From assembly GCF_003334335.1 (NCBI RefSeq), contig NZ_QOWQ01000022.1: a stretch of DNA of 64,000 bases, one strand, 5' to 3'. Positions 62,288 through 64,000 of the stretch are shown here, piece after piece. The notes under the pieces are model-generated. The model was given only the letters and a program-made list of their open reading frames with translations. It was not told the DNA's origin and searched no databases. The position numbers were made by a program, and so were the translations under genes. This DNA comes from Escherichia coli. Lineage in GTDB: Bacteria; Pseudomonadota; Gammaproteobacteria; Enterobacterales; Enterobacteriaceae. Position 1 is the first letter of the stretch. Each line of letters begins with the position of its first letter.

Positions 62288-64000
62288 TTAAAAATCAGCC
62301 TGACTCGGGATCAGTTTTTGCCAGATAGCTGAAACGTATTTTGCCTGATAACGGGCGTCATCAAGTGCATTATGGCGCTCACCTTCGAATGGGGTAGCAG
62401 TTCTGGCATCGAAGTCTATGGCTTTCCCCAGCTCAACGATTGTGCGTACATCGCGATCGTTGTAGTAACGCCACGGGCAGGGGATCCCCTGCCGTTCGTA
62501 TGAACGGCGCAAAATCGTGTTGTCGAAGTTGGCTCCATTTCCCCAAACCTGAACAAAAAATTCACCGGAGTTTTCGTCGATAAATTCCCGCAATTGTAAC
62601 AGTGCATCATCTAACGGGATTTCATCGGTCATAATGGCAGATTGCGCTTCGCGTGATTGCTTAAGCCACCATTTAATGGTGTCCCGATCAATGACTCCGC
62701 CAGCAGTTTCCAGATCGATAGTCTTACTAAATTCCGGTCCCATATCTCCGGTTTGCGGATCGAAAAATATTGCACCTATTGAGATGATCGGGGCATCAGG
62801 ATTTTTTCCCATGGTTTCAAGGTCGATCATTAGATGGTCACACGTCCTGCTGGTGGATGTGATTTCGTGATGACCGTTCACCTTAATTGGGTGATCTGCC
62901 GTCTCGCCAGTTTCATTATCGCTATTGTGATGCTGATTGCCGCCAGTGTTCTCCTTGTGTGGATGTTCAGCGCCTTCCATTTCCTCCGGATCATCTTCCT
63001 GAACTTCAGGCTGATACTCTTCATCGAATGTTTCCTGGTATGTTGCGTCGCCCATTACCGCGCCACAATCAGGGCAGTTGCCGCCGGTCTGACCGCAGGC
63101 GGTGCAGACTTTTTCCACTTCCTGTTGCGCCACTGATTCAGGCTGTTTCGTTTCTGGCTCGTTTTGTAACGCATTTGGGCTGTTTTGTTCCGCTTTCTGG
63201 TCGTTCTGTTCCGTTTCTTGCTGGTTCTGGTTCACAGAATCGCGGGTCTGGTTCCCCTTAACCCATTTCGGATCATTCGGGTCGCTAATCCCTTCAACAA
63301 ATTCACCACGTGATACTGCAAGCAGTTCATCGGCGTCAGGCTGGCTGATATTGGCTGCCTGCATAATTTTGTTTACTTCGTCAGCGGTAACTTTTACTGA
63401 CCCTGGTTGTGCGGTCGTGTCAGATGCACCAGTATTTTGTTGTGAACCTGAGTATGTACCGTTTTTGCGGGCGAAATATTCTTCTTTCGTGATTTCAGTA
63501 GCCCCAGCAGACAGCGCCTTATCCAGACCAGAAAGTTTGTTTGCGCGACCGTATTTTTCGCCATCCTTGTCGGTGAAGAGGAAGTAGAACGGCCCCTCAC
63601 GTTCTACAGATGGTTCGACTTCCACTTTGCATTCGGTTTTTTCGTTGTCTGGAATTGCCGTTTCCACTGCATCAGTTTCTGGTACTGGCGACGAGAGAGT
63701 ATCAGTTGCGCTCTGATTTGTTCCTTCATCTTCAAACACGCCCTTTGTAGTCAGGTATTCAGTAATGTATTTGTTCAGTGCCACAGGGTCTTTGTGAATG
63801 TCGATCGGACGTTCACGGACAAGGCCAAAAATAGTCTGGCGGTCGTAGCGAAGGGCATCAGGCTGTTTGCGCATTGATGCCGAGATACGCTTCCAGTCTT
63901 CGCGGTCGTTGTCGATAACTTCTTTTTTTGCCCAGCGATGGATGCTGCCGTCAATGTTTCCGGCATCCACATCACCAGGCCAGAGAGCGTAGGCCAGTTC
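62288..64000 (-). CDS. phage exonuclease, partial (N-terminus beyond window): acidic/Gln-rich linker, CxxC-x7-CxxC zinc-ribbon motif and C-terminal DEDDh-type 3'-5' exonuclease domain
   Basis: Reading frame is open to the window edge; C-terminal motifs [16 protein letters not shown] and [10 protein letters not shown] are the DnaQ-like DEDDh triad; Cys cluster [14 protein letters not shown]. Confidence 0.75.
   Translation of the reverse strand, partial: [570 protein letters not shown]

Follow-up and report, generated by a model that had tools for sequence, protein, structure and literature searches.

A RecE-family hinge cassette in an Escherichia coli prophage exonuclease: a probable flexible tether with a probable zinc knuckle

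An acidic, Gln- and His-rich stretch precedes the nuclease domain of a prophage exonuclease in Escherichia coli, which raises the question of whether it is a flexible tether, a metal-binding region or a neutral low-complexity expansion. We analysed a window of 64,000 nucleotides (contig NZ_QOWQ01000022.1, assembly GCF_003334335.1), in which the 3' part of the gene, 570 codons plus the stop, occupies 62288..64000 on the minus strand, as judged from homologues and from the lack of an in-frame stop upstream. The ORF has no start within the window and continues past its end at 64000, and since full-length homologues measure 822-824 aa, about 253 N-terminal residues lie outside. The gene shares 96-98% DNA identity with genes annotated as exonuclease or 3'-5' exonuclease, and dN/dS is below 1 in every segment of the minus-strand frame, which is therefore the real coding frame; the protein matched PHROG 2082 over its full length. 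Antisense ORFs also cross the region (62887-63261 and 63102-63587 on the plus strand, and others), but we did not accept them as genes, because conservation and annotation everywhere follow the minus-strand frame.

The pseudogene ydfE of the K-12 Qin prophage has its intact counterpart in this gene. K-12 YdfE (b1577), encoded in the Qin cryptic prophage and truncated by IS2E, is 96% identical to a full-length homologue of the window gene over residues 1-256, and has dicB and ydfD as neighbours, as here. Only the N-terminal stump is left in K-12, where the linker and the nuclease domain are deleted, whereas the window copy lacks the YdfE-type N-terminal part solely because the window ends. Within lambdoid prophages the gene belongs to the early-left region devoted to recombination and anti-host functions, beside dicB, ydfD and kil-type genes, and is followed downstream by a DUF4224/excisionase-like ORF (61978-62220) and then an integrase, the same order as in JB2, mEp460 and JE86. 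No recT was found adjacent to the exonuclease gene, either in the window or in these three, and searches with Rfam and ARAGORN detected no RNA genes, and no tRNA at the prophage junction, in 58-64 kb. The gene was also observed in most E. coli genomes, often in multiple copies.

We then delimited the low-complexity feature, which in full extends over 62867-63337 on the minus strand, just upstream of the DEDDh 3'-5' exonuclease domain, and comprises a Q/N/E spacer, a Cys4 motif, an acidic run and a His/Asn/Gly patch. Its central part, 62900-63300, encodes residues 233-366 of the 570 that are visible, with a composition of 16% E, 12% Q, 10% N and 7% D. The stretch is real: both peptides quoted in the initial annotation occur in the minus-strand frame and flank the cysteines, and Q+N+E+D as well as His content exceed the background. 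The Q/N/E-rich spacer (63110..63250, minus strand) consists of degenerate heptapeptides (QETEQND, QKAEQNS, PNALQNE, PETKQPE), and Q+N+E+D make up 57% of its 47 residues, whereas none of 17,749 equally long stretches, taken from every other stop-to-stop frame of 200 aa or more in the window, exceeds 51%. The acidic run (62969..63025, minus strand) carries a net charge of -10 in 19 residues, and the His/Asn/Gly-rich patch (62867..62968, minus strand) has 7 His in 34 residues, i.e. 21%, compared with at most 18% in the other frames of the window.

The proposal that the segment is a flexible tether was supported by several analyses. A charge-hydropathy plot placed the spacer, the acidic run and the His patch on the disordered side, and the Cys4 segment and the nuclease domain on the folded side. 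AlphaFold2 assigned pLDDT values of 27-48 to the tether parts (below 50 in the spacer, 27-37 in the acidic run and about 30 in the His patch), as opposed to 83-97 in the adjacent nuclease domain. Furthermore, a degenerate 21-bp tandem repeat without strand assignment (63143..63229; 4.1 copies, 70% matches by Tandem Repeats Finder) underlies the spacer, and its period equals the 7-residue step by which spacers differ in length: 66 unique homologues fall into classes of 35, 42, 49 and 56 residues. The spacer here is 14 residues longer than that of K-12 RecE. Low complexity, low hydropathy and high net charge, an unfolded prediction beside a folded domain, and length polymorphism in repeat units, all characters of a disordered linker, are found together in this segment.

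Selection was not uniform along the cassette. The dN/dS ratio, calculated from 12 sequences with pooled non-independent pairs, very short segments and an alignment that is ambiguous inside the repeat, was ~0.1 in two conserved islands, 0.3-0.4 in the spacer (range 0.29-0.40) and 0.6-0.7 in the acidic and His parts (0.66-0.69 and 0.61-0.65, respectively), while the DEDDh domain gave 0.18. Island 1 (63251..63337, minus strand), a DUF4072-like motif with a weak Pfam match, marks where the DNA homology to recE ends on the upstream side; it is nearly invariant in 49 unique homologues, including the K-12 and Rac-SA53 RecE proteins (dN/dS 0.07-0.11). Island 2 (63026..63109, minus strand) consists of a Cys4 knuckle and its tail, with the Cys codons at 63104-63106, 63095-63097, 63074-63076 and 63065-63067, and its dN/dS of 0.09-0.11 is lower than that of the catalytic domain. 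Synonymous sites have also diverged more in the cassette (0.2-0.38) than in the adjoining DEDDh domain (0.06), a pattern expected of a mosaic history.

The C-terminal domain (62321..62836, minus strand) is predicted to adopt an RNase H-like DEDD fold, and on the basis of sequence and model it is assigned as a 3'-5' exonuclease of the DEDDh class. It matched the Rv2179c-like family PF16473 with an E-value of 2.8e-67 over model positions 2-177 of 177, and retains the catalytic residues D393, E395, D493, H543 and D548, each conserved in 65-74 of the 75 aligned sequences. Foldseek returned T4 DexA (8KEL) as the best match to the domain (E 1e-10), followed by RNase T, a DnaQ domain and Orn, and phmmer also linked the domain to 8KEL (E 1e-6). 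T4 DexA, RNase T, DnaQ and Orn share the fold and the DEDDh catalytic residues with the domain; however, they are single-domain proteins of about 180-230 residues with neither the N-terminal region nor the hinge cassette.

Such a segment had been regarded as unusual in nucleases, but the same segment occurs in the classical exonuclease VIII, RecE. The cassette of about 150 residues corresponds to residues ~455-590 of E. coli K-12 RecE, and by blastn it is 83% identical to Rac-SA53 recE and 77% identical to K-12 recE. This homology is confined to 62893-63337, and its limits, 62893 and 63332-63337, are nearly those of the low-complexity feature. A protein alignment of 49 unique cassettes agrees with this relationship, and convergent low complexity is an unlikely source of 77-83% DNA identity over about 440 bp. 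RecE (Rac prophage, b1350; PF06630 plus DUF3799) shows the same order of parts, namely the motif, the Q/E spacer, the Cys4 element, the acidic run, the EHPH patch and the nuclease, and its gene, like the window gene, belongs to the early-left operon of a lambdoid prophage beside xis and int. Both the Cys4 motif (517-532) and SDETGE (580-585) of K-12 RecE precede the nuclease, which was crystallised as residues 606-866 (PMC11611040). Of 5426 complete E. coli genomes, 4735 (87%) carried the cassette DNA, and comparison of its length and composition across homologues revealed the stepwise spacer lengths together with a maintained Q/N/E acidity.

The two proteins differ on either side of the cassette. 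The N-terminal region is of the YdfE type here and of the Exonuc_VIII type in RecE; the RecE nuclease is a 5'-3' PD-(D/E)XK enzyme (DUF3799/RecE fold), whereas the window protein has the DEDDh 3'-5' exonuclease, and unlike RecE it is not followed by recT. No PD-(D/E)XK domain was detected in the window protein, where the Pfam matches at the C-terminus were to Rv2179c-like and RNase_T only and the fold search returned DEDDh enzymes. NCBIfam NF007259 scored the window protein at 260.6 bits and its full-length homologue at 280.8, below the cut-off of 1269, and the match was limited to profile positions 270/288-602. When architectures of the family were read from phage records, genome records and a representative library, at least four different C-terminal continuations were found after ETGE, and the joint lies within the His patch, after ETGE(T/A). 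Among 23 family members searched with Pfam, DUF3799/PDDEXK domains were present in 7 and the Rv2179c-like domain in 5. A 682-aa protein of Stx phage 75/02 has the cassette and no nuclease, and its gene is followed by gam, recT and exo. Nuclease-less "RecE-2" proteins and DnaQ-like nucleases have been described in lambdoid Rec modules (Genome Res 2025, PMC12315714), and these share the gene position and family mosaicism of the window gene; as far as the accessible text of that article goes, it makes no mention of the hinge cassette or the Cys4 motif, and "zinc" occurs in it only twice, both times within a single reference title.

We next considered the metal-binding proposal, which is plausible for the four cysteines only. 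C299, C302, C309 and C312 are invariant in a 30-sequence alignment, the pattern C..C.{5,8}C..CG, made of two CxxC pairs, occurs in 109 family sequences, and the consensus element reads CxxC-x6/7-CPDCG(A/P)VMG(D/N)ATY. The motif is probably a zinc site, as judged from these sequences. The cysteines had been called a zinc ribbon, but in the window copy the loop between the pairs has only 6 residues, which indicates a short knuckle and not a classical ribbon; this rare loop form, one residue shorter than the other, was found in only one other copy, a JE86-ST05 prophage gene. Pfam matched no zinc-ribbon family in the window protein and gave a DZR match in one family member (E 0.025), and a PDB sequence search with the Cys4 peptide returned nothing significant (best E 0.23). 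AlphaFold2 did not model the motif with confidence, giving a pLDDT of ~48-50 for residues 298-310 in a metal-free model from a shallow alignment. The literature searched contained no relevant statement on zinc in RecE or on YdfE function, nor did we find in it a role for the RecE N-terminal region. Since P0152, P0161 and P0166 lack the motif and P0136 retains half of it, the Cys4 motif is dispensable in at least some contexts, or the copies without it are decaying.

Taken together, we consider it likely that the cassette is a RecE-family hinge, a mostly disordered acidic tether with two conserved islands, which links an N-terminal region of the YdfE type to a DEDDh domain resembling DexA and DnaQ. 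The spacer, the acidic run and the His/Asn/Gly patch would form an intrinsically disordered acidic tether that is free to drift in length and sequence and probably provides only reach and flexibility between the domains, while purifying selection appears to act strongly on the two short islands within it. Most likely the knuckle holds a single zinc ion, and its probable role is that of a small element for docking to DNA or to a shared partner protein. The cassette would also be the conserved joint at which lambdoid prophages recombined differing N-terminal regions with differing C-terminal ends, the latter being two PD-(D/E)XK nucleases of the RecE type, the DEDDh exonuclease, or no nuclease.

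A more far-reaching proposal, which we regard as tentative and rather doubtful, is that the knuckle and its invariant tail constitute a portable targeting module of temperate phages of Enterobacteriaceae and Aeromonas, carried by DNA enzymes with no other relationship (RecE nucleases, DEDDh exonucleases, nuclease-less RecE-2 proteins and Dam methylases), and recruit these enzymes to one shared target, either a host factor or a DNA structure (for example, the replication fork or DNA ends). The Cys4 element with GAVMGDATY, whose recurrence counts in favour of the hinge reading, is present in other phage DNA enzymes, the Dam methyltransferases of P2-like phages (Enterobacter phiT5282H and Salmonella SI7, SW3 and SW5), at 64-71% identity over ~30 residues, and also in an Aeromonas phage protein. 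In the P2-like Dam enzymes it is located at the extreme C-terminus of the methyltransferase, with no acidic or His-rich low-complexity flanks. If the proposal held, the knuckle would be the determinant of the advantage of full-length RecE over the truncated nuclease in linear-linear recombination.

Compared with the hinge reading, it seems unlikely that the segment is a neutral expansion produced by slippage of the 21-bp repeat and drift, merely connecting the domains and retaining the cysteines as a relic. The variable copy number of the heptapeptides and the relaxed dN/dS of the acidic and His parts would fit such an origin, as would the family members devoid of the Cys4 motif, the free-standing enterobacterial DEDDh homologues of 183-191 aa, which lack the entire segment, and the recombination still supported by truncated RecE without the region (PMC11611040). 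However, several findings speak against neutrality: the islands are more constrained than the catalytic domain, the four cysteines are all invariant, phages of Salmonella, Klebsiella, Enterobacter and Aeromonas retain Cys4 and GAVMGDATY in proteins that are otherwise unrelated, and RecE, YdfE-type and Stx-type proteins have all kept the acidic Q/N/E character although their sequences turned over. Homologues without the segment and with no functional difference had been named in advance as the sign of a neutral expansion; those just described go part of the way towards this, the free-standing DEDDh homologues lacking the entire segment and P0152, P0161 and P0166 the Cys4 motif.

It is also quite improbable that the His patch, together with the acidic run, is a dedicated metal binder or sensor that loads or regulates the Mg2+/Mn2+-dependent DEDDh site, or binds Ni or Zn. 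The patch directly adjoins the catalytic domain, is denser in His than any other frame in the window, and contains an EHPH motif common to RecE-type and DEDDh-type proteins. Nevertheless, only EHPH and ETGE are conserved in it, the His positions outside EHPH vary (QHH becomes PHR, QDH or QYH in homologues), and unrelated sequence takes its place in the Stx-phage-type proteins and in P0152. Given this poor conservation outside EHPH and the replacement in Stx-phage-type homologues, a specific His metal site appears unlikely from these comparisons; the patch is also missing from the free-standing DEDDh homologues, and neither its dN/dS nor its pLDDT speaks for a constrained site. Finally, the idea that the acidic tether mimics DNA, so as to autoinhibit the DNA-binding surface of the nuclease or to decoy DNA-binding proteins of the host such as RecBCD or restriction enzymes, is suggested by the net charge of about -23 over residues 251-378 and by the anti-host setting of the gene, but is very improbable given the irregular charge pattern, the freely varying length, a PADLOC search that yielded only a generic DEDDh match with no defence or anti-defence family, and an AlphaFold2 model, of low confidence, in which the tether is not docked on the nuclease domain.

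The segment is thus probably an ordinary flexible tether with a probable zinc knuckle in a gene already annotated in RefSeq as exonuclease or 3'-5' exonuclease, and as the counterpart of a long-known RecE stretch it has little importance as it stands. The points of modest value that the literature searched does not spell out include the hinge as the joint for nuclease-domain swaps among lambdoid prophages, and the appearance of the same knuckle as an appendage of phage Dam methylases. Such points offer concrete and cheap mutagenesis targets for asking why full-length RecE differs from the truncated recombineering enzyme. Separately, we noted the same knuckle in a 190-aa metagenomic protein, P0175, whose uninformative context is a 1.6-kb contig of small unannotated genes.

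The region at 62900-63300 is covered by a sole long reading frame in an ORF scan, lying on the minus strand, with a stop codon at 62288-62290 (-) and no further stop up to the window end at 64000, so that the window truncates the gene and shows 570 residues of the exonuclease. These positions correspond to residues 233-366, in which E accounts for 16%, Q for 12%, N for 10% and D for 7%, and both of the peptides quoted in the initial annotation were found in this frame, flanking a 15-residue stretch. In comparison with all remaining stop-to-stop frames of 200 aa or longer, the spacer contains 57% Q+N+E+D, as compared with at most 51% in 47-residue background windows, and the His patch contains 21% His, as compared with at most 18% in 34-residue background windows. 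With the peptides present and the composition above all of the background frames, the acidic Gln/His-rich stretch is thus real, and its full extent is 62867-63337.

We aligned 49 unique cassettes and calculated segment-wise Nei-Gojobori dN/dS from 12 genes, with the DEDDh nuclease domain (dN/dS 0.18) as the reference. As a result, the cassette, on the minus strand throughout, resolved into the nearly invariant 29-residue island 1 (63251-63337; 0.07-0.11), the Q/N/E spacer with its heptapeptide repeat (63110-63250; 0.29-0.40), the 28-residue island 2 with four invariant cysteines (63026-63109; 0.09-0.11), the acidic run with a net charge of -10 over 19 residues (62969-63025; 0.66-0.69), and the His/Asn/Gly patch, in which conservation is limited to EHPH and ETGE (62867-62968; 0.61-0.65). 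Less probable readings of the cassette, each with specific evidence against it, are a purely neutral expansion, a metal site formed by histidines, and an autoinhibitor that mimics DNA.

The spacer holds a degenerate 21-bp tandem repeat (63143-63229, 4.1 copies, 70% matches; Tandem Repeats Finder), which encodes the heptapeptides QETEQND, QKAEQNS, PNALQNE and PETKQPE. Among 66 unique homologues, the spacer has 49 residues in 42 cases, 35 in eight, 42 in six, 56 in one, and other lengths in a few, so that the length classes differ by multiples of seven residues. The window carries the modal 49-residue form and K-12 RecE the 35-residue form. In the AlphaFold2 model, built on a 75-sequence alignment, the spacer stayed below pLDDT 50, the acidic and His parts scored 27-37 and the Cys4 segment reached about 48-50; all three low-complexity parts fell on the disordered side of a charge-hydropathy plot. 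In the best-supported reading, the low-complexity parts form a disordered acidic tether of weakly constrained exact length and sequence, and the two short conserved islands, one of them a probable zinc knuckle, are likely docking elements. The flexible tether proposed initially is supported, and the metal-binding role suggested with it could plausibly fall to the cysteines, though not to the His patch.

Beyond the cassette, a single confident Pfam domain, Rv2179c-like, was detected at residues 389-560 (E 2.8e-67), besides a weak DUF4072 match. The DEDDh residues D393, E395, D493, H543 and D548 are intact, the domain was modelled with pLDDT 83-97, and its Foldseek neighbours include T4 DexA (8KEL, E 1e-10; also matched by sequence search), RNase T, the DnaQ domain and oligoribonuclease. 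These features identify the C-terminal domain as a DEDDh exonuclease. Salmonella, Klebsiella, Citrobacter, Enterobacter and E. coli also have DEDDh homologues that stand alone as proteins of 183-191 aa (58-75% identity), showing that the nuclease domain exists naturally without the linker.

The gene belongs to a lambdoid prophage beside yccA, with a DUF4224/excisionase-like ORF directly downstream (61978-62220, minus) and a tyrosine integrase (60981-62000, minus). Neither ARAGORN nor cmscan found a tRNA or other Rfam RNA between yccA and the integrase (60573-60981), and no tRNA is annotated at the corresponding junction in strain JB2. At the DNA level, the gene is 96-98% identical to 822-824-codon genes annotated as exonuclease or 3'-5' exonuclease, which are located both on E. 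coli chromosomes and in phages, among them mEp460_ev081 and the EHEC prophages PPompW. In K-12, IS2E has truncated the Qin pseudogene ydfE, which shares 96% identity with residues 1-256 of the full-length protein and has the same neighbours, dicB and ydfD, indicating that the window gene is the intact form of ydfE. Judged from full-length homologues, ydfE is evidently the N-terminal stump of an 823-aa exonuclease. The visible part of the window gene begins almost exactly at the IS2E cut point of K-12 ydfE (...DDELAY; K-12 locus L016:7079-7999). In a separate AlphaFold model of low confidence elsewhere, only residues 136-180 (about 63460-63595, minus) reached a moderate pLDDT of 53-77, with two strands and helices, and the YdfE-type N-terminal region may thus include a small domain that folds here. 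Precomputed annotations of the relatives P0218, P0233, P0246 and P0152 give the newer Pfam families PF27430 and PF27432 (YdfE_C), neither of which was reported by the Pfam library used here; a family definition for this region may thus already exist.

Megablast against phages matched Rac-SA53 recE at query 617-1017 only (window about 62904-63304), and direct blastn gave 83% identity to Rac-SA53 recE and 77% to K-12 recE, both confined to 62893-63337, so that the recE-homologous DNA nearly coincides with the low-complexity stretch. K-12 RecE carries the Cys4 motif at its residues 517-532 and SDETGE at 580-585, and its hinge precedes both the nuclease domain that was crystallised and the truncated forms that serve in recombineering (PMC11611040). 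By homology, the linker is the RecE hinge. The window protein, however, is not itself RecE, as its NCBIfam exonuclease VIII score was 261 bits, where the cut-off is 1269, and the match was limited to profile positions 288-600. Such a segment was initially considered unusual in nucleases, which is wrong within the RecE-related family; the feature is ordinary and very common in prophages, and the gene is already annotated.

After ETGE, at least four unrelated continuations were found: the DEDDh domain, the PD-(D/E)XK nuclease of K-12 RecE, the larger nuclease of the Rac-SA53 type, and a short nuclease-less tail, as in Stx phage 75/02, followed by gam, recT and exo genes. In this Shigella phage (L006:2049-4097), the protein has 682 aa and is annotated as exodeoxyribonuclease VIII; its N-terminal region is that of RecE, it carries the hinge cassette, and a short hydrophobic tail (DWKRQLVLAAVYGLC...) takes the place of the nuclease domain. 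The N-terminal regions also vary: the window gene has the YdfE type, and phage 689R5, with the same C-terminus, the Exonuc_VIII type. The cassette shows greater synonymous divergence (0.2-0.38) than the DEDDh domain next to it (0.06), as would be expected of segments with different histories. The cassette probably also provides a recombination joint for the exchange of catalytic domains among lambdoid prophages. Passages of a survey from 2025 on lambdoid recombination modules independently place nucleases of the DnaQ type and "RecE-2" proteins lacking a nuclease at the equivalent genome position, and in these passages the hinge is not mentioned (PMC12315714).

The Cys4 element was also searched for elsewhere by tblastn with a 34-residue query. 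P2-like phages (Enterobacter phiT5282H, Salmonella SI7/SW3/SW5 and Klebsiella prophages) have it as the C-terminal tail of their Dam methyltransferases, and Aeromonas phage 14AhydR10PP has it within a hypothetical protein of 299 aa; in these contexts, CxxC...CPDCG(A/P)VMG(D/N)ATY lies at L007:1658-2629, L018:643-1626 and L017:2566-3465. The element looks like a mobile mini-domain, and matched no Pfam family or PDB chain. From the cysteine pattern, zinc binding is probable, and Cys4+GAVMGDATY may be a portable targeting module underlying the effect of full-length RecE in linear-linear recombination. In the window, a one-codon deletion (63074-63097, minus) shortens the Cys4 loop from 16 to 15 residues (GQTGGN versus GQTGGGN), a form otherwise present, among about 110 family sequences, only in the JE86-ST05 ompW prophage copy; the Dam-type copies likewise have the shorter loop. 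Island 1 occurs without the Cys4 motif in the family proteins P0152, which has a DEDDh domain, P0161 and P0166, and P0136 retains half a Cys4 motif after an internal deletion. P0136 and P0125 are internal in-frame deletion variants with junctions at short repeated peptides; at one 13-residue peptide the N-terminal domain runs directly into the knuckle's second half, and another 13-residue peptide forms the second junction, suggesting microhomology-mediated deletion within the gene.

Of 5426 complete E. coli genomes, 4735 contain DNA matching the cassette, at a median of two and at most eight copies each, and among 1.84 billion representative proteins only 64 clusters include any part of it, so that the cassette is abundant yet narrowly distributed. 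The database homologues listed in two protein searches were mostly "partial" proteins from contigs of a few hundred bases; we would guess that a prophage gene present in up to eight copies per genome disrupts short-read assembly and so leaves partial entries.
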